NCBI GenBank assembly: GCA_038893995.1 | Contig: JAWAQK010000004.1 | Location: 1 to 64,000, forward strand | DNA: 64,000 bases | Reading direction: 5' to 3' | Origin: Candidatus Thorarchaeota archaeon | GTDB lineage: Archaea > Asgardarchaeota > Thorarchaeia > Thorarchaeales > Thorarchaeaceae | Shown: positions 21,549-35,439 of the stretch, in pieces | Layout of the letters: every line of letters begins with the position of its first letter | Numbering within the stretch: position 1 is the first letter of the stretch | The notes under the pieces: model-generated | What the model saw: the letters and a program-made list of their open reading frames with translations, nothing else | Told to the model about the DNA's origin: nothing | Database searches by the model: none | Translations under genes and position numbers: made by a program

Positions 21549-22868
21549 ATGCAGAGGATTTCTCTCCTGCCGCCCAGAGATCTCCTCAGGAGTCTGGATG
21601 TCATGATTGGCAATGGCTTCGGTTTTGCGAGCTGGACCTCCTTCATCAAGGAGTCTCAGATCAGGGCCCTGTTGAAATACAATGTGAAATACTACTTTGC
21701 GGGTGGAAAGCCTGGCATTGTACCCATTGCTGCCTTTGCGGAGATCCTGCGCACCCTCAGTCAACTCTACGAGGAAAACCCCTCGATGGCACTTGACGAC
21801 CTCAACTATGGTCCCACTGGTGGGCATTCCTGGTTTCAGAAGACACTTGCGAAACGACTCCGCGATGTCAGGGGAATTCCAATCGACCCTGAGACTCAGT
21901 ATGACCATGTCTCGATCACTAACGGTTCTCAACAGGCTCTGTATGCCATACTCGACACGATGATTGACCCGGGCGACATAATCATCACTCCCTCGCCGGC
22001 GTACCTCGGATTCCTAGTGCCTGCAGTCAAGCTTGGAGCCCGAATTGTCACTGTTCCAACGGACCTTGAAGGAATAATTCCAGAGTACGTAGAACGTGCG
22101 ATATACCTGACCCGGCTGAAGTTCAATCGAGACCCGGACATGCTATATGTTGTGCCCGATTCAGACAATCCGAAGGGCACGACTCTTTCGGCGAGCAGAA
22201 GACAGCAGCTATTTGACATATGTGAGAACTACAACATCATGTTGGTCGAGGACTCTGCATATGCAGAGATACAGTTCAGACCTCAAATCAAGCCAATCAA
22301 GTCCCTGGATCGAGAGAACACCAGAGTGTCATATCTGGGAACCAGCAGCAAGGAGGCCGCAGTGTTGAGGGTCGGTTACTCTGTTCTGCCTCAGAGTGTT
22401 CGAGAACAGGTCCTGAAGGACAAGGGGTACCTCGACCTATGCACATCCTCGCTGGTACAGAGGATACTCGACATCTACTACAACAAGTACATCGAAGAGG
22501 CCCTGAGGAATGCAGTTCCAAAGTATAGAGAGCGATGTGAAGCAATGGCAAAGGCGATTGATGAGTTCTTTCCCGCTGGTACTCGGACCGATCCGACGGG
22601 TGGTTTCTTCATATGGTGGCAGAGTGACAGGCAGTTCGATAGTACAGCATACATGATGAAGACGGCGATTCCAAACGACGTCATGTATGTTCCCGGCGCC
22701 CAATTCTATCCTCAAGTCGGGTTCTCACTGACTGATGACGGTGTCGACATTGTACCCAGCAAGATTGAAACAAACACGATGCGCCTGGGTTTCTCGTATG
22801 CATCACCAGAACTCATCTACGAGGGCATAGAACGGCTTGGAAAGATGCTATCGAGAGACATCGGTTAG
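21549..22868 (+). CDS. PLP-dependent class I/II aminotransferase (LysN/ARO8-like)
   Basis: FAGGKP, YGPT.G, TNGSQQAL, NPKG, VEDSAY, GTSSK...LRVGY, GGFFIW, MRLGFS. Confidence 0.9.
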   Translation: MQRISLLPPRDLLRSLDVMIGNGFGFASWTSFIKESQIRALLKYNVKYYFAGGKPGIVPIAAFAEILRTLSQLYEENPSMALDDLNYGPTGGHSWFQKTLAKRLRDVRGIPIDPETQYDHVSITNGSQQALYAILDTMIDPGDIIITPSPAYLGFLVPAVKLGARIVTVPTDLEGIIPEYVERAIYLTRLKFNRDPDMLYVVPDSDNPKGTTLSASRRQQLFDICENYNIMLVEDSAYAEIQFRPQIKPIKSLDRENTRVSYLGTSSKEAAVLRVGYSVLPQSVREQVLKDKGYLDLCTSSLVQRILDIYYNKYIEEALRNAVPKYRERCEAMAKAIDEFFPAGTRTDPTGGFFIWWQSDRQFDSTAYMMKTAIPNDVMYVPGAQFYPQVGFSLTDDGVDIVPSKIETNTMRLGFSYASPELIYEGIERLGKMLSRDIG

Positions 22869-23052: not shown

Positions 23053-24399
23053 TCACTCCGATACTATGGCTACATCCCCGACCTCGCCTGTCCGCACTGA
23101 CAGTGTCAGCAGGAGGGCTATCACGAGGAACACCAGCGATACCGGAAACAGGAGTGTCACTCCTTGAATGGACATCAGTAGAGCCGCGGCATCAAATATG
23201 ATACCCGTGATGAAGGGACCAAGTATTGCTGCACTCATGCTGAATCCGTAGTACAGTCCAGTTCCAGCCCCCAGCCGAGACTGCCCCAGCAGTTGCCAGA
23301 CCATGACGATGGAGTTCACATTCACGAATGCCCAGCCGGTACCTGCAATGGCGAGGAGACCCAGGATGACCACGTAATCAGTGGCTGGTATCAGTAGCAC
23401 CAGAGCAACCAACATCAGGACTAGCCCGATCGCTATGGTCTTCTTGCGCCCAATTCGACCCGCCAGGTAGCCTGCAGGGACTGCGAATACTATGAATGAG
23501 ATCGCTATGCCGTTCAACAGGAATGACGCATCTGCAGTAGCGAATCCCAGCACGTTAGCACCATAAGTGGTGAACCACGTCTCAATTGCGTTGTAGCTCA
23601 GAAACCAGAAGAAGATGGCAAGCAACAGAAGCATTGCAGATCTGTCTCTGGAGAGGGAAACCTGTCGTAATGCCTCGACTATCCCCATCTCTCGTTTAAT
23701 CTCAGCTGGTAACGGTGTGGCTGGTTCCTTGATGAATACGAAAAGCAGTACCAGGGCTACCACCATTATGATGGCAGTCGTCAGAAACGTCAATACCGGT
23801 CCTGACTGTTCTGCAGTGACTCCAAGCATTGCCCCGATGACAGGGTCGTTGATCTTGTAGATCCTCGAGGCTATTGCAAAAGCATAGACGGCCCCGATAC
23901 CTCCCATCAGGTTGATCACACCATTAGCCTTGCTCCTGTGTTCTGGTCCCACAAGATCCGGCATGAGTGCCACAACAGGGGCCCGGTAGAAGGCCATTGA
24001 CACGTTGAACACGGTCAGTGCGGCCATCATGAACCAGAACGACGCCATTGCCCATCCGTACGCGATCAGAACGAAGGTGACTGATGCGATAGGGACACCG
24101 ACCATTATGTATGGCATCCTCCGGCCCCATCTGGTCCAGGTCCTGTCACTCCGCGCTCCGATATACGGTTGGAGAAAGAACGCGAATATGTTGTCAAGCA
24201 CCATTATGGCACCAATGATGGTCATCTGAAAATCACCGGTGATGAAGACCGGTAAGAAGTCCTTAGGCAGATAGCTGTTGTAGACACCCCAGCTGACGCC
24301 TGTAGTAAAGAACCCGAGTCCGATGGTCAGCACGTACAGCCATCTCATTCTCTCGGGTCCGCCGGCGTATCCATTGCGCTCATTATTGACTGAACTCAT
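23053..24399 (-). CDS. MFS transporter (maltose/sucrose GPH-SLC45-like)
   Basis: About 12 TMs, QPYIGARSDRTWTRWGRRMPY, RAPVVALMPD, AGRIGRKK. Confidence 0.9.
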   Translation of the reverse strand: MSSVNNERNGYAGGPERMRWLYVLTIGLGFFTTGVSWGVYNSYLPKDFLPVFITGDFQMTIIGAIMVLDNIFAFFLQPYIGARSDRTWTRWGRRMPYIMVGVPIASVTFVLIAYGWAMASFWFMMAALTVFNVSMAFYRAPVVALMPDLVGPEHRSKANGVINLMGGIGAVYAFAIASRIYKINDPVIGAMLGVTAEQSGPVLTFLTTAIIMVVALVLLFVFIKEPATPLPAEIKREMGIVEALRQVSLSRDRSAMLLLLAIFFWFLSYNAIETWFTTYGANVLGFATADASFLLNGIAISFIVFAVPAGYLAGRIGRKKTIAIGLVLMLVALVLLIPATDYVVILGLLAIAGTGWAFVNVNSIVMVWQLLGQSRLGAGTGLYYGFSMSAAILGPFITGIIFDAAALLMSIQGVTLLFPVSLVFLVIALLLTLSVRTGEVGDVAIVSE

Positions 24400-24539: not shown

Positions 24540-26228
24540 TCAGGGCATGAAGTTCACAAAGAGAGTTGGGCCATTCTTCATGCCGGGGACGTAATTTCTC
24601 TCGTAGGGCCCGAAGACGTCGTGCACGCCCGTATTTATCATCCACTCGACCCACGACCACGATGCCTCTTGTCCAATCTTCTCCCTGGCATAGCTGCCGT
24701 ACGTCCAGCTGAGGTAGTTGAGTGCATCCAGTCGGAGGCCCCTCCTGCCGTCGTCGCTCATCTCTCCGAGACCTGCGTCGAGTGACGAACGCAGTTCCGT
24801 CCATCGTGACATGATGAGTTGTTCAGTTTCCTGCAGGCAGAGATTGATCTCGTCCACATTTCCTGCCTTTCGTGCACGGACCTGTCGCCCAATGATCTTA
24901 AAGAGGTCTGTTGTCTGGAGAACCGGTAGGCCTGCCTCGTTCAATCTCTGCGCCGAGCTCTGACTCCATGGTGTGTTGAAGTAGACTCGCGGATACCTCA
25001 GGACTCGCGGAACAGGAAGGCCAAGTTCGCGAATACATGGTAAGACCTGTGCATAGTACGATATCTCTCCCGGTCCGCCAATGTGACAGACTACGGGTAG
25101 CATGAAGTCTACGAGTATCTGGCGAGTGTCTACTCTTGGTGTAAGCATGAGGACATAGTCAGATAGGTCGGGCTGTCTCTCGTCGTACTCGATGCTAATT
25201 GTCTGTCCACAGACCGGACACGCCCCAGTGAGAATGCCCTTTCCCTGCGAATTGCCCTTCCGAATCTGGACCCTGCTCCGATGACAATCTCTCTCAGGGC
25301 ACTCAAGGAAGAACGGAGAGTAGTCATCTGTCCTCTGCGGCAGCCCTGCTCTATATCCTGCAGACTCTATTGCCCTCAGGGCCCTATTGCTCTCATTGAT
25401 GAATCTCACCCGATTTGTCTCAGTCAGGAGGAACTCCATGCCATCCTGCATCAGCCGTCTGACATCGGGATCAGAGTATGGAATGAGAGGAATTCCGAGG
25501 TCTCCAATGATATTGTAGAGGCTTCCCATTATCCTCTGATGCCAATCGCCCAGGGTGCTTGACTCGAAATACGATGCCCTCACTAGAGCCAGTGCGCTCT
25601 CAAGTCTCTCCTGGAAGAGTACTCTTGTCTTTGGCTCCAGTGTCTTGAACAGAGTCGAGTAGCTGTGCCGGACAGAGTGTTCCACCTGGACATACCACTC
25701 TGCATCAGGGAGTGGAAGTGTACCGGCCGGAGAATGTTCGTAGCCTCTCGGCACGGGAATACTGATCAGGTTCCCCTCTGAGTCTGGTCCAGGTGTCCTC
25801 ACATTTATGAGCTCCGGCTGAACAACATCATAGTCTGCCACAAAGAACACAGGCGCCATCTGTCCATTGGCAAAGTCCGCGACTCTCCTTGCGGTTGCTG
25901 CCTTGTTCAACATGAACACAGGGCCACCCATACACACGGTCTGGTGGGCAGCCTCAACCACACCTGATCCCATGTTGTTGATGCTGACCCTGACCCTCGG
26001 TGTCAGTATTCCAATCCGTTGGCTCAGTCTGAGAAGGACTGACTGTAGCTGTGAGATCCTGCTCTCGTCAAGTGTACCCTGCTGTCCATATGCCTCAAGT
26101 ACCTGTTCCGCCTCACGAGGCACCGCATCAATCGTGATCGGAGGATCGTCGTAGAGGTATCTCGCCAGTTCTGCGTGCTCGCCTCTCCAGATATACGACT
26201 GGTAGAGGCCTGCAATACTCTCAGCCAT
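24540..26228 (-). CDS. bshC: Bacillithiol biosynthesis cysteine-adding enzyme BshC (divergent, with four-Cys insertion)
   Basis: AAHQT...GGP.F.LNKA, PVFF.A.YD, TP.V.TR.....MLP...IGGPGEISYYAQ. Directly downstream of bshA. Confidence 0.82.
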   Translation of the reverse strand: MAESIAGLYQSYIWRGEHAELARYLYDDPPITIDAVPREAEQVLEAYGQQGTLDESRISQLQSVLLRLSQRIGILTPRVRVSINNMGSGVVEAAHQTVCMGGPVFMLNKAATARRVADFANGQMAPVFFVADYDVVQPELINVRTPGPDSEGNLISIPVPRGYEHSPAGTLPLPDAEWYVQVEHSVRHSYSTLFKTLEPKTRVLFQERLESALALVRASYFESSTLGDWHQRIMGSLYNIIGDLGIPLIPYSDPDVRRLMQDGMEFLLTETNRVRFINESNRALRAIESAGYRAGLPQRTDDYSPFFLECPERDCHRSRVQIRKGNSQGKGILTGACPVCGQTISIEYDERQPDLSDYVLMLTPRVDTRQILVDFMLPVVCHIGGPGEISYYAQVLPCIRELGLPVPRVLRYPRVYFNTPWSQSSAQRLNEAGLPVLQTTDLFKIIGRQVRARKAGNVDEINLCLQETEQLIMSRWTELRSSLDAGLGEMSDDGRRGLRLDALNYLSWTYGSYAREKIGQEASWSWVEWMINTGVHDVFGPYERNYVPGMKNGPTLFVNFMP

Positions 26229-26240
26229 TCCCTGTCTCCC

Positions 26241-27410
26241 TCAGCCATTCAGTGCGCTCCTGAGTACCTTCTCGTACCTTGGAACAATCACTTCGGGTGT
26301 GAACCCGTCCAATACTCTCCTTCTACCTGCCTTTCCGAGTCGAGCCCTGAGCCGGTCATCAGTAAGTAGACGAATGACCCCCTCTGCAAGCTCCTCCGTT
26401 TCAAATGTCTCGGTGACAATTCCGTCTATCCCGGGCCTGACCAACTCGGGTACCCCCCCTGCCGGTGTGGTCACGACGGGAAGCTCGCAGGCCATTGCCT
26501 CCAGCAGGACAAGAGGCATTCCTTCCAGATTGGAATTGAGGACAAAGAGGTCTGCTGACGACATCAGCTCGTTCACATTCGTCCTCACACCGATAAGATG
26601 TACTCTATTGCAGAGCCTATGTTGTTCGATCCTCCGCTCGACCTCTGTCCTTGTGGGCCCATCGCCTACCAGCAACAGCCTTGCTTCGGGAACATTATCC
26701 ACAACCAGTCGCATGGCATCGATCAGTTCTACTACCCTCTTCACCCTCCTGAAGTTTGAGACGTGCAGCAATATCCTGTCCTTCCGTGAGACAGTATGAT
26801 CCCGTCTCTCTCTCATCACTGGGCATCCGTCCTCTACAACAAGTTCGACCCTCGATGTGCGACGGAAGACCTTCGGGTCGATGAAGTTTGGAATGACCTC
26901 AATCTCTCTCTCTACGCCGAGTTTCTCAATGGCCATTTTCCTGAGGAAATCCGCAACTGTCGTCACTCTGTCTGCCTCACGTATGGTGTGCTTCACGACT
27001 GGCATGTAGGCGGGATTGGCCCCCAGCATATGTACGTCGCTGCCATGTAGTGTGAGGACGTACGGCACTCCCGTGATCTCTCTTGCAACATGCGCTGACA
27101 TGGCATGGGGAATCGCGTAGTGGACATGAATCACGTCGAGTCTGCTCGTATTCGCGACTTCGACCAATTTTGAGCATAATGTGACTGCATATTGAGTTCC
27201 AACGTCCTCAAAGAGTGGGTACTCGCCCTGGTCCACCAGGTGAACGAACAGGTGCAAGGGACGTTCTTGGGTCAGGCCAAAGGGAGTCCGGTAGGTGATG
27301 AAATGTATCTCATGACCCCTCTGGACCATGTGCTCTCCAAGCCGTGTCGCCAGGTGTCCCGAGCCTCCGACGGATGGGAACAGACTGACACCTATCTTCA
27401 TATACTTCAC
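26241..27410 (-). CDS. bshA: N-acetyl-alpha-D-glucosaminyl L-malate synthase (GT4)
   Basis: MKIG...PSVGGSG..AT.LG, HVHYAIPHA, TLHGSD, HVSNFR.VKRV, E...LVLLEAMA. These are BshA-specific signatures. Confidence 0.92.
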   Translation of the reverse strand: MKYMKIGVSLFPSVGGSGHLATRLGEHMVQRGHEIHFITYRTPFGLTQERPLHLFVHLVDQGEYPLFEDVGTQYAVTLCSKLVEVANTSRLDVIHVHYAIPHAMSAHVAREITGVPYVLTLHGSDVHMLGANPAYMPVVKHTIREADRVTTVADFLRKMAIEKLGVEREIEVIPNFIDPKVFRRTSRVELVVEDGCPVMRERRDHTVSRKDRILLHVSNFRRVKRVVELIDAMRLVVDNVPEARLLLVGDGPTRTEVERRIEQHRLCNRVHLIGVRTNVNELMSSADLFVLNSNLEGMPLVLLEAMACELPVVTTPAGGVPELVRPGIDGIVTETFETEELAEGVIRLLTDDRLRARLGKAGRRRVLDGFTPEVIVPRYEKVLRSALNG

Positions 27411-27469
27411 ATTCCTGAGTCGTACTACAATAGGGTACTGACAACGTCTTATGCGTGGTGGTCCTGCAA

Positions 27470-28162
27470 ATGGTATCGGAGCATCCTCATGCAGGCTCCG
27501 GCGGAGATCGTCCTTCTATCCTGGTCGTCTGCGCCCATCCTGACGACGAATGTATCGGTGCAGGGGGAACGGTTGCCAAACATGCCCACCTGGGCTTCCC
27601 GGTGCATGTATTGTGTCTGACTGGCAATCCAGAACGACATAGAGAACTCTCAGCCTCCTGCAAGACGCTTGGCGTCAGCACGCTACGCGCTATCGAACGC
27701 GGCGATCACGACATAGACTGGTCTCTAAGAGCAGTTGTCGTTGAGGCGATACTGGATGTCCGGCCTGCAGTTGTGATAACACACACTCCTGACGACTACA
27801 ACCGGGCTCATGAGATGTGTCACAGAGTTGTGGTCGAGGCTGTCGAGTGGGCCTCACATGTCACACAGTTCCCCAACGCACACAGGACCAGGCAAGTCCT
27901 CACGATGGAGATAAACACACTTCATCCGCATCCAAACATACTTGTCGATGTCTCTTCATCTTATGACGTGGCCATCAGTGCCCTCAGCGAACACAAGTCT
28001 CAGCTGAGAAAGTCAGACCGATTCTACGAGCGATTCTATGACGCAAGGACCAGGCTCAGGGGAGTACAGGCTGGATGTGAACGGGCAGAGGCATTTGGCA
28101 TAGTTCTCCCAACTCACGCCGGCCCGTTCTACACTATCAACAGTGTTGATACGCTTCTCTGA
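27470..28162 (+). CDS. bshB: PIG-L/LmbE deacetylase, probable BshB
   Basis: ILVVCAHPDDE.IG.GG, VDVS, H.SQ, RG...G...AEAF. Divergent from bshA across a gap of about 60 bp. Confidence 0.82.
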   Translation: MVSEHPHAGSGGDRPSILVVCAHPDDECIGAGGTVAKHAHLGFPVHVLCLTGNPERHRELSASCKTLGVSTLRAIERGDHDIDWSLRAVVVEAILDVRPAVVITHTPDDYNRAHEMCHRVVVEAVEWASHVTQFPNAHRTRQVLTMEINTLHPHPNILVDVSSSYDVAISALSEHKSQLRKSDRFYERFYDARTRLRGVQAGCERAEAFGIVLPTHAGPFYTINSVDTLL

Positions 28163-28163
28163 A

Positions 28164-28556
28164 CTACTCCTGCTCCGTCTCTGATCTCTTTCGTCTGGCG
28201 GCGAGCAATGCCTTTAGTTCGCCCATCATGCCGCCTCCAGGAGAGACTGGCTTCGGAGCGGCCGATACTGGTGCCTTCGCGATTGAGGGTGCTGCCTCGG
28301 CCGCCAGTGATGGTCCTCCTTCTGCAGGCGTCGGGGTGACTCCCCTTGCGATCCTGGACTCGAGAGAGCTGATCTTTGACTCGAGGCTATTCACCTGATT
28401 CTGGAGTGAGCTTATGTTCCCCTCAAGGACCCCGATTGCCTCTACCAGCTTGTGAGTAATTGTACTGACGACCTCTCCAAGCCCCCTGAGCTTCTCCTCT
28501 GTAGGATCCTTGAGTGCCCACTCAAACTCTTCCATGATGAAGTCATCGTCGCCCAT
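28164..28556 (-). CDS. Small coiled-coil + Pro/Ala linker protein with C-terminal Ena/VASP FAB-like motif
   Basis: Heptads IGVLEGNISSLQNQVNSLESKISSLESRI, linker TPTPAEGGP..APKPVSP, C-terminal GGGMMGELKALLAARRKR. Fills the gap between glmM and bshB. Confidence 0.75.
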   Translation of the reverse strand: MGDDDFIMEEFEWALKDPTEEKLRGLGEVVSTITHKLVEAIGVLEGNISSLQNQVNSLESKISSLESRIARGVTPTPAEGGPSLAAEAAPSIAKAPVSAAPKPVSPGGGMMGELKALLAARRKRSETEQE

Positions 28557-28587: not shown

Positions 28588-29982
28588 CTATAAAGGTTGT
28601 CTGCGCCGACTTGCAACCTCCACAATTGTGCTCTGGACTATTGGCTCGACGGAGTCGAGGATCTGCCTGAGACCGTCCGATGTCTTTGCCTCACAGGTGA
28701 TTCTAATCACCGGTTCCGTACCCGAGGGTCTCACAAGTGCCCAACCATTTCTCAACACGATCCCCAGTCCGTCGACCTTGGTGACACTGACTATCTCGGG
28801 TACACTGGACGGCAGTCTCCTCTCTAACAACTCCATCACGGGACCCTTGATGTGTTCTTCGCAGTTGAGCTTGACCTTGCTCAGGGGGTACACGGGTATG
28901 TCAGAGATGAGTTCTCCAAGAGTGCGGCCTGACTCAGCCATCAGTTCGAGTACCCTGCATACCGCGAGAAACGGTTCGGGTCCAAGGTGAAAATCGGGAA
29001 AGATGAAGACTCCGCAGGCCTCTCCTCCGAAGCATGCACCAGACTCCTGGATCTTCATGGCCACCTGAATGTCGCCAACGGGTGTGCGTATTGTCGCCCC
29101 ACCACTCTTTGAGACAGTGTCATCGAGTACCTGTGAGCTATCGACAGTCGTGACGACTGTCTTGGACGTGCAATCGCGAATCATCTCTCGCGCAAGGAGG
29201 GCAATGATCCGGTCTCCTCGTATGACCTCTCCAGTCTCTGACACGAAGACGACCCGGTCTGAATCGCCATCATGTGCCACACCCAGCGCGGCCCCACTCT
29301 GTCTTACCATAGTGACAAGGTCAGCAAGGGACTCTTCGTCCGGCTCCGATCTTCTGCCCGGAAAGTGCCCATCGAGCTGGCCGTTGATACTCAGGACTTT
29401 ACATCCAAGCTTACGCAGCAGGTACGGGGTCATGAGAGTACCAACACCATTACCGGGGTCGACCACCACCTTGAACCCCATGGATGCCACAAGACCAACG
29501 TCACAACGGTCTAGGATCGCCGTCATGTGTCTGGAAACTGCATGGTCAATCTGGGTGTCCTTTCCCAGCCGGTCCCACGTCTGGCGCTTGAACTCTCTGC
29601 GCTGCAGTATGTCCTCTATCCGCCGTTCCTGCTCGGGTGTGTAGCCCATGCCATCGGACCGCCAGAACTTGACCCCTGTGTACTCCGGTGGATTATGCGA
29701 CGCAGTCACTATGACTCCTGCAGCGTATCGATCAACTCCGGTCATGAATGCCAGAGTCGGTGTCGGTATCGTGCCCGCACGCACAACATCGACACCTGTT
29801 GACATCACGCCGGCAGCAAATGCATCTGCAATCATTCTCCCCGTCGTTCGGGCATCTTGCGCAAGTAGGATCTTCCCCTCACCAAGATAGGTCCCGAGAG
29901 CCATACCGAGGTCCAGCGCGAGATCCAGGGTGAACTCTGTCCCGTAGACCTTTCTCACTCCTGTCGTTCCAAAGAGGGACAC
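28588..29982 (-). CDS. glmM: Phosphoglucosamine mutase / phosphomannomutase
   Basis: LFGTTGVR, TASHNP (phospho-Ser), DGDSDR metal loop, GGE..G, VRPSGTEP. Probable GTG start 29982. Confidence 0.92.
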   Translation of the reverse strand: MSLFGTTGVRKVYGTEFTLDLALDLGMALGTYLGEGKILLAQDARTTGRMIADAFAAGVMSTGVDVVRAGTIPTPTLAFMTGVDRYAAGVIVTASHNPPEYTGVKFWRSDGMGYTPEQERRIEDILQRREFKRQTWDRLGKDTQIDHAVSRHMTAILDRCDVGLVASMGFKVVVDPGNGVGTLMTPYLLRKLGCKVLSINGQLDGHFPGRRSEPDEESLADLVTMVRQSGAALGVAHDGDSDRVVFVSETGEVIRGDRIIALLAREMIRDCTSKTVVTTVDSSQVLDDTVSKSGGATIRTPVGDIQVAMKIQESGACFGGEACGVFIFPDFHLGPEPFLAVCRVLELMAESGRTLGELISDIPVYPLSKVKLNCEEHIKGPVMELLERRLPSSVPEIVSVTKVDGLGIVLRNGWALVRPSGTEPVIRITCEAKTSDGLRQILDSVEPIVQSTIVEVASRRRQPL

Positions 29983-30177
29983 CTTCTCACCACCAGACCC
30001 TGTTCTGTGGTAGATGAAAAATGTAATGCTCTGAGGGGGGAACACTCTTGAACTCCGGTCAGTCGAGTGACCTCTGGAATCCTGATACTGGTCCGAGAAA
30101 GCTTATTAGGCCCGCATGAGCTACTCGCCAACCGATTACTGGCGGTCAAGACGATACTGGAGAGTCTGGAATGGCAG

Positions 30178-30726
30178 ATGAGTAGTACGTATGATTATCT
30201 ATTCAAGACGGTTGTTCTGGGGGAGGGTGCTGTCGGAAAGACTGCGATAGTCACCAGATTCTCGCATGGTTTCTTCAGGACTGACTACAAGACCACGATC
30301 GGGTCCCAGTTTGCAGTGAAGAGCATCGATGTCTTCACTAAGAGCGGAAATCGTGTCACTGTAAAGCTTCAGATATGGGATGTGGCTGGTCAGTCCCGTT
30401 TTCAGATACTCAGACCGATGTATTATCGGGGATCCAGCGGCGGTCTGCTAGTCTATGATGTCACCAGAAGGCGTACGTTCCTAGTGCTCGACGAGTGGCT
30501 CGAGGAACTGAGGAAGTCAGTCAACAAGGACATTCCTCTCGTATTGGTCGCAAACAAGATAGACCTCCCCGACAGAGTGGTGACTGCAGCAGAGGGCAAG
30601 AAGTATGCCGAGGAGCACGGGATGCCCTACGTGGAGTCTAGTGCCAAGAGCGGAGAGGGTATTCTGGACGTATTCGAGAGTCTTGCGAAGACACTGATTG
30701 AGGCTCGAGAGGCTGGACGCGCTTAG
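30178..30726 (+). CDS. Rab-like small GTPase (Ras superfamily, eukaryotic signature protein)
   Basis: YDYLFK, GEGAVGKT (G1), TIG (G2), KLQIWDVAGQ (G3), YYRGS, LVYDVT, NKID (G4), SAK (G5). No C-terminal Cys. Confidence 0.95.
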   Translation: MSSTYDYLFKTVVLGEGAVGKTAIVTRFSHGFFRTDYKTTIGSQFAVKSIDVFTKSGNRVTVKLQIWDVAGQSRFQILRPMYYRGSSGGLLVYDVTRRRTFLVLDEWLEELRKSVNKDIPLVLVANKIDLPDRVVTAAEGKKYAEEHGMPYVESSAKSGEGILDVFESLAKTLIEAREAGRA

Positions 30727-34131: not shown

Positions 34132-35439
34132 CTACAGATCAAACCCGGTCCGACCAGTTCCCCATGACTCGAGGGCCCTGCGTAGCTCAACATGGTCCTC
34201 TGCATACTTCTTGAGGGGTATCTTGTTCATGACTGCATCGATTGCCTGACGGAATGCCCTGGCACCGGCCCTTGGCCCGTCAGGATGTGCGTGAATGCCG
34301 CCCCCCGAGCCGATGACTATGTCTGGTCCCAGGTCTCCGACGACTTCGTCCACCATCCCAGGTGAGATACCTCCGCTAGGCATGGGTGCAGTCTGTCTGA
34401 TGTGATGTAGAGGCATGACCATCTCCCTGGCCATTGCAATGAATCTCTCTTTCAGCAGTGGTGCTTTCCCATATGGGGCCGGAAATACAGTGATGTCAGA
34501 ACCACAGATGCGTGGCAGCTTGCCTATGACGAGGTTGGTTCCCACTCCGGTTATTGGCGAATAGGACAGAGCACCCGTTATGTCCATGTGAGCCAGTACG
34601 GGCACGTTTAGCGATGGGTCCTCACATACATGGCGGAACGCGGAATACCCCACTGCGAGGAAGTTTATCATCAGTGCATTTGCACCAAGCTCTATTGCCC
34701 GCTCTGCGTTCTCGAACATCTTCGGGACCTCGTCCGTGATGTTCACCGTGAAGAGCGTCTTCTCTCCCTTCTCCGAGTTGGCCCGGTCAATGGCCTCCAT
34801 GAATAGTGGGATTCTCTCCTCGATGGAGTTGAAACAGGCATTCGCGAGGAGTTCGTCATCCTTGATTATGTCCGCTCCGCCGGCCGCAGCCTCGTAACAG
34901 AGACTCGCACCCAGTTTGGCCGAAGTATACACACAGGGCTTGATCATATTGTTGAGCAGCGGGCGTTCCTTCACCCCGAGCAGCTTTCTGAGACCCTCGA
35001 TGCCGAACTTTGGTCCCTTGAACTCCTTCAGCCAACTCTGTGGAAACCTGAGGTCTAGGAGCTTTATCCTGCCACCAAGAGATATGTTTCCCACCACCGT
35101 GCTCAGGAGCATCGGTATCTGAGCCCCAAAGTTCTCCCACGGAAAGGCTACCTGAATGATGTACTCTCGTCTCTCGAGGTCCTTGGGAATGCTATACTCA
35201 TACTGGGGGACCTCGTACACGCCGATTACCCTTGCAATATGCCGTCTCCTCACATCGGGAGTTTCTCCTGGCACTGGTGTCCAAGTACCAGTGCTCTGCT
35301 CCACTGCGGCAGCATGAGCTACCTCTCTCGCATCTATGAATGGAGGTAATCCAACATAGTACGTACCTATCACATACTTCTCCGGGTCAATCGCATCGGC
35401 AAGTGCGTCTGGCAGGGAATCGAGTGGCTCTCTGTGCAT
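34132..35439 (-). CDS. RuBisCO-like protein (form IV)
   Basis: EQSTGTW, GPKFG, IKP, GADIIKDDE, SGG, GGGIH.HPDG. The second Lys of KPK and the Arg of HR are missing. Confidence 0.9.
   Translation of the reverse strand: MHREPLDSLPDALADAIDPEKYVIGTYYVGLPPFIDAREVAHAAAVEQSTGTWTPVPGETPDVRRRHIARVIGVYEVPQYEYSIPKDLERREYIIQVAFPWENFGAQIPMLLSTVVGNISLGGRIKLLDLRFPQSWLKEFKGPKFGIEGLRKLLGVKERPLLNNMIKPCVYTSAKLGASLCYEAAAGGADIIKDDELLANACFNSIEERIPLFMEAIDRANSEKGEKTLFTVNITDEVPKMFENAERAIELGANALMINFLAVGYSAFRHVCEDPSLNVPVLAHMDITGALSYSPITGVGTNLVIGKLPRICGSDITVFPAPYGKAPLLKERFIAMAREMVMPLHHIRQTAPMPSGGISPGMVDEVVGDLGPDIVIGSGGGIHAHPDGPRAGARAFRQAIDAVMNKIPLKKYAEDHVELRRALESWGTGRTGFDL

Follow-up and report, generated by a model that had tools for sequence, protein, structure and literature searches.

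A conserved bacillithiol-type gene cluster in Thorarchaeota and its divergent BshC homologue with a probable zinc ribbon

The bacillithiol pathway of bacteria such as Bacillus subtilis, B. anthracis, Staphylococcus aureus and Chlorobaculum tepidum relies on three types of enzymes, BshA, BshB1 or BshB2, and BshC. Mycothiol synthesis by MshA, MshB and MshC follows a similar logic, with a GT4 glycosyltransferase, an LmbE deacetylase and a ligase resembling class I aminoacyl-tRNA synthetases. The reaction of BshC has not been reconstituted in vitro and activation of cysteine by the bacterial enzyme is not established (PMC5790435). Homologues of BshA and BshC in Asgard archaea were noted in 2020 in a review by Rawat and Maupin-Furlow, who considered bacillithiol possible in these organisms (PMC7278568). 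Here, we describe a cluster of three genes encoding the same three enzyme types, located at positions 24540–28162 of a 64,000-nucleotide stretch (the window) of contig JAWAQK010000004.1 from the genome (2.33 Mb, 91% complete) of a Candidatus Thorarchaeota archaeon (assembly GCA_038893995.1). This cluster is real and conserved, and is a divergent variant of the known pathway. Its genes probably constitute an archaeal bacillithiol-type pathway, the product of which would be bacillithiol or a close analogue. The core idea being already published, what is new here is the divergent branch of zinc-ribbon BshC proteins to which the putative ligase belongs.

Like the bacterial set, the cluster comprises a true member of the BshA family, a deacetylase whose modelled fold matches that of BshB (2IXD, 6P2T) and a ligase whose modelled fold matches that of BshC (4WBD). 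Unlike the bacterial set, it is archaeal and its genes form a single divergently oriented cluster, its deacetylase and ligase fall below the equivalog cut-offs and have changed pocket motifs, and its ligase carries a four-cysteine (Cys4) insert. An earlier note, drawn from the bare sequence, had attributed this DNA to an Asgard-like archaeon, and the closest homologues are indeed named from Candidatus Thorarchaeota. It had also considered all three enzymes to be present; the three open reading frames are there and intact, but only BshA reaches its equivalog cut-off.

The bshA gene (26241–27410, minus strand) encodes a GT4 N-acetylglucosaminyl-L-malate synthase of 389 amino acids from a GTG start, or 386 from an alternative ATG at 27401. 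Exactly 12 bp separate its stop codon from the start of the co-oriented bshC-like gene (24540–26228, minus strand), encoding a putative cysteine-adding amide ligase of 562 amino acids that belongs to a mainly Asgard zinc-ribbon branch. The gene of the BshB-like PIG-L/LmbE zinc deacetylase (27470–28162, plus strand; 230 amino acids) is divergent; the protein collection places its start at this ATG, an upstream GTG at 27455 giving 235 amino acids. The 59-bp spacer between the divergent starts (27411–27469) presumably acts as a shared promoter region. The 12 bp and approximately 60 bp previously reported for these two intervals thus hold. Chance matches can be dismissed, since the family E-values are low (1e-111 for BshA, 6.5e-15 for PF10079 and 1e-18 for PIG-L) and since order and strands (bshB<-bshA->bshC->) are kept in 47 of the 48 Thorarchaeota loci that extend far enough upstream. 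The three genes have a G+C content of 0.54–0.55 (0.55–0.61 at third codon positions), like the genome (0.54) and the neighbouring genes. This matching composition, together with the presence of BshC in all genomes of the family, speaks against a recent transfer into this genome.

The GT4 enzyme is a member of the BshA family TIGR03999, against which it scores 373.4 bits (equivalog cut-off 273.7; next family 142.5). Its matches in the Protein Data Bank at E<1e-20 are five BshA structures, all from Bacillus and Staphylococcus (best E 3e-79), and it carries the motifs GGSG, HYAIPH, TLHGSD and SNFRRVKR. In Asgard BshA, serine replaces threonine in HGxD; apart from this change, the motifs that we take to lie on the acceptor side are identical to those of bacteria. 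In a phylogenetic tree, the protein falls among BshA proteins and apart from other GT4 enzymes, so that the placement outside the BshA clade that the earlier note had envisaged as contrary to its proposal was not observed. Supports are 100/100 for Thorarchaeota, 89/98 for Thorarchaeota plus family f12 (f-numbers designate Asgard families and L-numbers the compared loci), 99/97 for a Heimdall-related group and 91/80 for a group of bacteria and family f27. The bacterial rows of this tree are mostly Bacteroidota and the outgroup branches are long. As monophyly of the Asgard rows lacks firm support (60/50) and no Firmicutes rows are included, no donor or direction of transfer is claimed for BshA.

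The deacetylase is encoded by the sole PIG-L gene of the genome (PF02585: 68.5 over 28.2). The HxDD+H motif defines LmbE enzymes, and a conserved arginine (R53 of BshB) is called essential (PMC4101496). The motif is kept as H23-P-D25-D26 and H114, as is R56, the equivalent of R53, and each of these five residues occurs in 51/51 Thorarchaeota copies. BshB1 structures are the nearest relatives in profile comparisons, and the model (pLDDT 93) matches 2IXD, 6ULL and 6P2T at Z 29–30 and diacetylchitobiose deacetylase (Dac) at Z 25–26. The protein thus appears to resemble BshB in profile and predicted fold, yet it is neither BshB1 (TIGR04001: 80.4 vs a cut-off of 182.5) nor BshB2 (TIGR04000: 67.4 vs 195.25) by family test. 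One annotation source names a homologue diacetylchitobiose deacetylase, an identity that is ruled out on scores for the protein studied here.

The BshC-like protein matches PF10079 (55.8 bits, gathering cut-off 27), and the predicted fold is unambiguously that of BshC. Indeed, its model (pLDDT 90) superposes on 460 residues of B. subtilis BshC (YllA, 4WBD) with a Z score of 37.6, a root-mean-square deviation of 2.8 and 17% identity. Both proteins display GGP and GGPGE motifs and are devoid of HIGH and KMSKS; they differ by pocket motifs, by the Cys4 insert, which is absent from bacterial-type BshC, and by their assignment to separate clades. The second-best fold is that of class I lysyl-tRNA synthetase (LysRS; 1IRX, Z 22.6, root-mean-square deviation 3.3, 297 residues), other class I synthetases reaching Z 10–13 (cysteinyl-tRNA synthetase, CysRS, 11; MshC 10). 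The insert, C310-x4-C315...C337-x2-C340 (25209–25301, minus strand), occupies the position that the zinc ribbon has in class I LysRS; with the RVD motif that follows, it aligns with the LysRS1 ribbon (hhalign E 8.9e-5, probability 60%) and is a probable zinc ribbon. The Cys4 pattern was found in 120/120 Thorarchaeota homologues, and three or four of the cysteines in other Asgard families. LysRS identity is ruled out on scores; the protein has neither HIGH nor KMSKS, no anticodon domain and no match to PF01921 (class I LysRS); separate LysRS1 and CysRS genes are encoded elsewhere in the genome. Scores also rule out a mycothiol pathway, the MshA (53 bits) and MshB (34 bits) profiles being matched far below their cut-offs and the fold of MshC at no more than Z 10.

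BshC homologues searched among 1.84 billion representatives fall into three groups: a zinc clade that is mainly Asgard (98/98), a second zinc clade (100/100) from Altiarchaeota, other archaea and Anaerolineae, and bacterial BshC, within which Asgard family f27 is nested (100/100). Members of the second zinc clade are frequently encoded within glycan gene clusters, next to a PIG-L or a polysaccharide deacetylase; they lack the GGP and GGPGE motifs common to the Asgard branch and bacterial BshC. In a tree rooted on LysRS1, this glycan clade diverges earliest, leaving the Asgard proteins as sisters of the bacterial ones (96/88), although the underlying alignment is weak and visibly wrong past the ribbon. 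A zinc ribbon restricted to Asgard archaea is ruled out by this second Cys4 clade and by a Bathyarchaeota protein of the Asgard branch. Most proteins of the second zinc clade, which have an HQPN motif (L144, L146, L148, L149, L150, L151), bear no Pfam or NCBIfam name.

Distribution was surveyed in 251 Asgard genomes; as related genomes are not independent, the counts describe patterns rather than statistics. Zinc-type BshC is encoded by 59/59 genomes of the family of the present archaeon, by most genomes of f5 (labelled Heimdallarchaeaceae), f12, f14, f22 (labelled Hodarchaeales), f25, f26 and f18, and by few genomes of f9 and f24. BshA accompanies it except in f22, f9 and f24. The deacetylase orthogroup (E<=1e-72) was found in f1, f5, f12, f14, f25 and f26, i.e. 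families with both BshA and BshC; among the families searched, it was not found in those without BshA. The three genes therefore co-occur, in several arrangements, in the family of the present archaeon and in five other Asgard families. Within Thorarchaeota, the single exception to the conserved order is L083:7001-8386, from the closed chromosome CP070658.1, where the match to bshC begins only at residue 108, with neither bshA nor a deacetylase gene found within 7 kb upstream, which reflects either a rearrangement or an assembly error. As the entire block from the NAD kinase gene to pyrF is syntenic in Thorarchaeota, synteny of the three genes in this group says little. Outside it, the three genes are adjacent in other orientations, and all the other neighbours, glmM included, differ.

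The zinc-ribbon BshC branch appears to be old among Asgard archaea, where its partners are different glycosyltransferases. In f22, 14/16 genomes encode a zinc-ribbon BshC, bshC standing alone beside a gene for a pyridoxal phosphate (PLP)-dependent aminotransferase (L102:6266-7960, L103:6454-8130, L109:5825-7504), and neither BshA nor an orthologous deacetylase was found in the genomes of this family. An operon of f9 and f24 associates a GT2 glycosyltransferase, a BshB1-type deacetylase and a zinc-ribbon BshC, without BshA (L115:5797-9358, L116:216-3301, L117:6077-9505); its product could differ. After this operon comes an amidohydrolase-like gene in convergent orientation. In family f27, the operon is bshC-bshB1-bshA and of bacterial type, with all proteins over the cut-offs (L140:5162-8564, L143:5287-8684); it was probably acquired separately from bacteria. 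In Bathyarchaeota, one cluster (L160:4291-11399) groups genes for a deacetylase, an amidohydrolase, a zinc-ribbon BshC, a thioredoxin-like protein (WCGDC), BshA, two DinB proteins and a MerR regulator, a gene content suggestive of a thiol context.

In the proposed pathway, BshA would join UDP-N-acetylglucosamine (UDP-GlcNAc) with L-malate, with retention, to yield alpha-GlcNAc-malate, a step strongly indicated by family membership. With moderate confidence, the zinc deacetylase (ligands H23, D26 and H114, catalytic D25, substrate Arg56) would then release glucosamine (GlcN)-malate, and the BshC-like protein would form an amide between cysteine and the free amine. The resulting thiol, Cys-GlcN-malate or a closely similar compound, would buffer the redox state of the cytoplasm, bind metals and scavenge electrophiles, and bacillithiol itself is slightly favoured as the product. 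As the ligase lacks HIGH and KMSKS, yet keeps a catalytic fold of the class I LysRS type and the ribbon, our preferred guess is that cysteine is transferred in a pre-activated form (Cys-tRNA or Cys-AMP, provided by CysRS or by some partner) rather than adenylated by the BshC-like protein; Cys-tRNA as the donor is a tentative suggestion. This scheme is supported by BshA scoring over its cut-off, by the modelled BshC fold, by the HxDD+H motif, the arginine and the BshB1 affinity of the deacetylase, by a co-occurrence that is independent of gene order, by the thiol context of the Bathyarchaeota cluster, and by the sister position of Asgard BshC to bacterial BshC rather than to the glycan-cluster branch, within the limits of the weak alignment. 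For the supply of precursors, the genome encodes glmS, glmM, glmU, CysRS and an iron-sulphur fumarase that can supply malate. No gamma-glutamylcysteine ligase of the GCS2 type was found in it, which was counted in favour of a bacillithiol-type thiol.

Several points weigh against this interpretation. The BshC-like protein scores 63.6 against TIGR03998, for a cut-off of 265.8 (bacterial-type controls: 386–563), the bacterial GQQ and EDHD read AHQ and DYDV, and a profile search gave no match to the C-terminal BshC coiled-coil family. In the deacetylase, Y110, N111 and A113 replace R109, H110 and D112 of BshB, so that the substrate residues of BshB are not kept; in the 51 Thorarchaeota copies, the first two positions are always Tyr and Asn and the third is Ala (or Asn). 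Loss of these residues strongly cuts activity in BshB and MshB, and Arg109 is proposed to contact the substrate (PMC4101496). Thorarchaeota BshA has EGMP at the place of bacterial ESFG, a position that presumably belongs to the donor-sugar site. No gene of the lactate/malate dehydrogenase family was found in the 91%-complete genome, nor were YpdA/Bdr over the cut-off, BrxA/B or DinB_2, the redox partners covered by the search. Furthermore, the same BshC branch occurs with GT2 or without BshA in other Asgard families; zinc-ribbon BshC therefore does not need GlcN-malate. Finally, bacillithiol has been measured only in bacteria so far, and no archaeon has been found to contain it (PMC7278568). 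The earlier claim that this organism makes bacillithiol or an analogue remains the best reading, with the qualification that bshB and bshC are named by resemblance, their products being far below the equivalog cut-offs and altered in their motifs.

Several of these departures would also be compatible with the same chemistry producing another thiol, through a different alpha-hydroxy acid acceptor or another sugar. Such a new bacillithiol analogue, which falls within the bacillithiol-type interpretation retained above, has a small but appreciable likelihood: the Thorarchaeota-wide changes at the substrate positions of the deacetylase, including the Arg109 equivalent, the EGMP and HGSD variants of BshA, the divergent pocket motifs of the ligase and the failure to find a malate dehydrogenase all point this way, whereas BshA lies well over its cut-off with SNFRxVKR and HYAIPH kept, the deacetylase of an identical cluster in sister family f12 has a canonical DYHPDH, and fumarase can provide malate. 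It is rather unlikely that the BshC-like protein instead attaches a non-cysteine amino acid or another acyl group to GlcN-malate, giving a non-thiol such as an osmolyte or an aminoacyl-sugar. The second zinc-ribbon clade, which other archaea and some bacteria encode next to deacetylases in glycan clusters, implies that this fold also serves purposes other than thiol synthesis, the nearest synthetase fold is LysRS and not CysRS, and the bacillithiol redox partners were not found in the present genome. However, the Asgard branch is separate from the glycan clade and shares GGP/GGPGE with bacterial BshC, the Bathyarchaeota cluster includes thioredoxin-like and DinB genes, and DinB_2 genes are present in 27/30 related Thorarchaeota genomes.

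The three genes might also be mere neighbours, with a deacetylase that is impaired or acts like Dac in chitin or GlcNAc catabolism and a GT4 enzyme that glycosylates a lipid or glycan. The synteny of the block from the NAD kinase gene to pyrF, the rank of Dac as second-best structural class and the name given to a homologue would fit this explanation, which is nevertheless improbable given that the three genes adjoin or co-occur outside Thorarchaeota while their other neighbours change, that the deacetylase orthogroup is missing from the searched families without BshA, and that the metal ligands are invariant in the 51 copies.

Beyond the bacillithiol-type reading, the LysRS1-rooted branching order would make the ribbon ancestral in the BshC family, which we regard as a lead. 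A broader and speculative version, to which we give only a modest chance, sees zinc-ribbon BshC as a LysRS1-like ancestral form, transmitted by vertical descent among Asgard archaea from a time preceding the split of Thorarchaeota and Heimdallarchaeota, sister to a bacterial BshC that would have lost the ribbon, using an aminoacyl-tRNA-type donor and paired with BshA, with GT2 or with no glycosyltransferase nearby, leading to non-bacillithiol thiols. If true, no sugar-cysteine thiol would have been shown in archaea before it, and it would offer a way into the mechanism of BshC. A divergent BshC that keeps the ribbon also reveals the residues that do not vary within the family and is indicative of a donor like that of synthetases.

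Eukaryotes use glutathione, and the Bsh-type sets of Thorarchaeota and Heimdall-related families bear on which small thiol is used by the archaeal relatives of eukaryotes. The conserved Asgard set conflicts with a 2025 survey of RefSeq with C. tepidum queries, which reported no archaeon with a full Bsh set (PMC12719100); divergence of the Thorarchaeota enzymes could explain this miss. The suspicion that Asgard homologues had already been noted proved right, as they have been in print since 2020 and the NCBI annotation already names these proteins BshA and BshC. The 2020 review counts InterPro matches only and includes neither BshB, gene order, phylogeny nor the zinc ribbon (PMC7278568). Literature searches on bshA of Thorarchaeota and on BshC with tRNA synthetase retrieved no publication dealing with this branch of zinc-ribbon proteins. 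The gain is thus a refinement and not a discovery, since the core idea was already published.

Among the neighbouring genes, the archaeal phosphoglucosamine mutase gene glmM (28588–30045, minus strand; TIGR03990 510 bits vs a cut-off of 439) had been cited as precursor supply two genes away. It is the second gene past the deacetylase gene, but its proximity has no evidence value and is ruled out as functional support, as it reflects synteny across Thorarchaeota and glmM was found beside bshC in 0/22 loci outside this group. The intervening gene (28164–28556, minus strand), which ends 1 bp from the deacetylase stop, encodes a 130-amino-acid coiled-coil, Pro/Ala-rich protein with weak family matches only, conserved at the same place across Thorarchaeota. 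On the other side, a gene resembling those of PLP-dependent multiple-substrate or 2-aminoadipate aminotransferases (21549–22868, plus strand; 3AOV/1X0M, E 2e-46) is convergent with bshC. It lies directly downstream of bshC in 61/61 other Thorarchaeota loci and is also convergent with bshC in four Hodarchaeales-labelled loci (L102, L103, L105, L109), the BshC of which is not sister to that of Thorarchaeota; this shared neighbour may reflect ancient synteny, or a connection with the turnover of cysteine conjugates. A major facilitator superfamily transporter gene (23053–24399, minus strand), co-oriented with bshC and 140 bp downstream of it, separates bshC from the aminotransferase gene here and in 0/87 other loci.

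The 59-bp spacer of the present genome is shorter than those of other Thorarchaeota and contains neither of the two short motifs detected there between bshB and bshA, a CTAATCAAGGTTTGG-like motif in 21/47 spacers and YTTAAR in 40/47 (e.g. L035, L037, L046, L050, L062, L098), which are probably divergent promoter elements. Farther along the window, a Rab-like small GTPase gene (30067–30726, plus strand) encodes a protein with 67–88% identity among Thorarchaeota loci. A RuBisCO-like protein gene (34132–35439, plus strand) is followed by genes that, by eye, encode formate-tetrahydrofolate ligase, FolD and a glutamate formiminotransferase-like protein.

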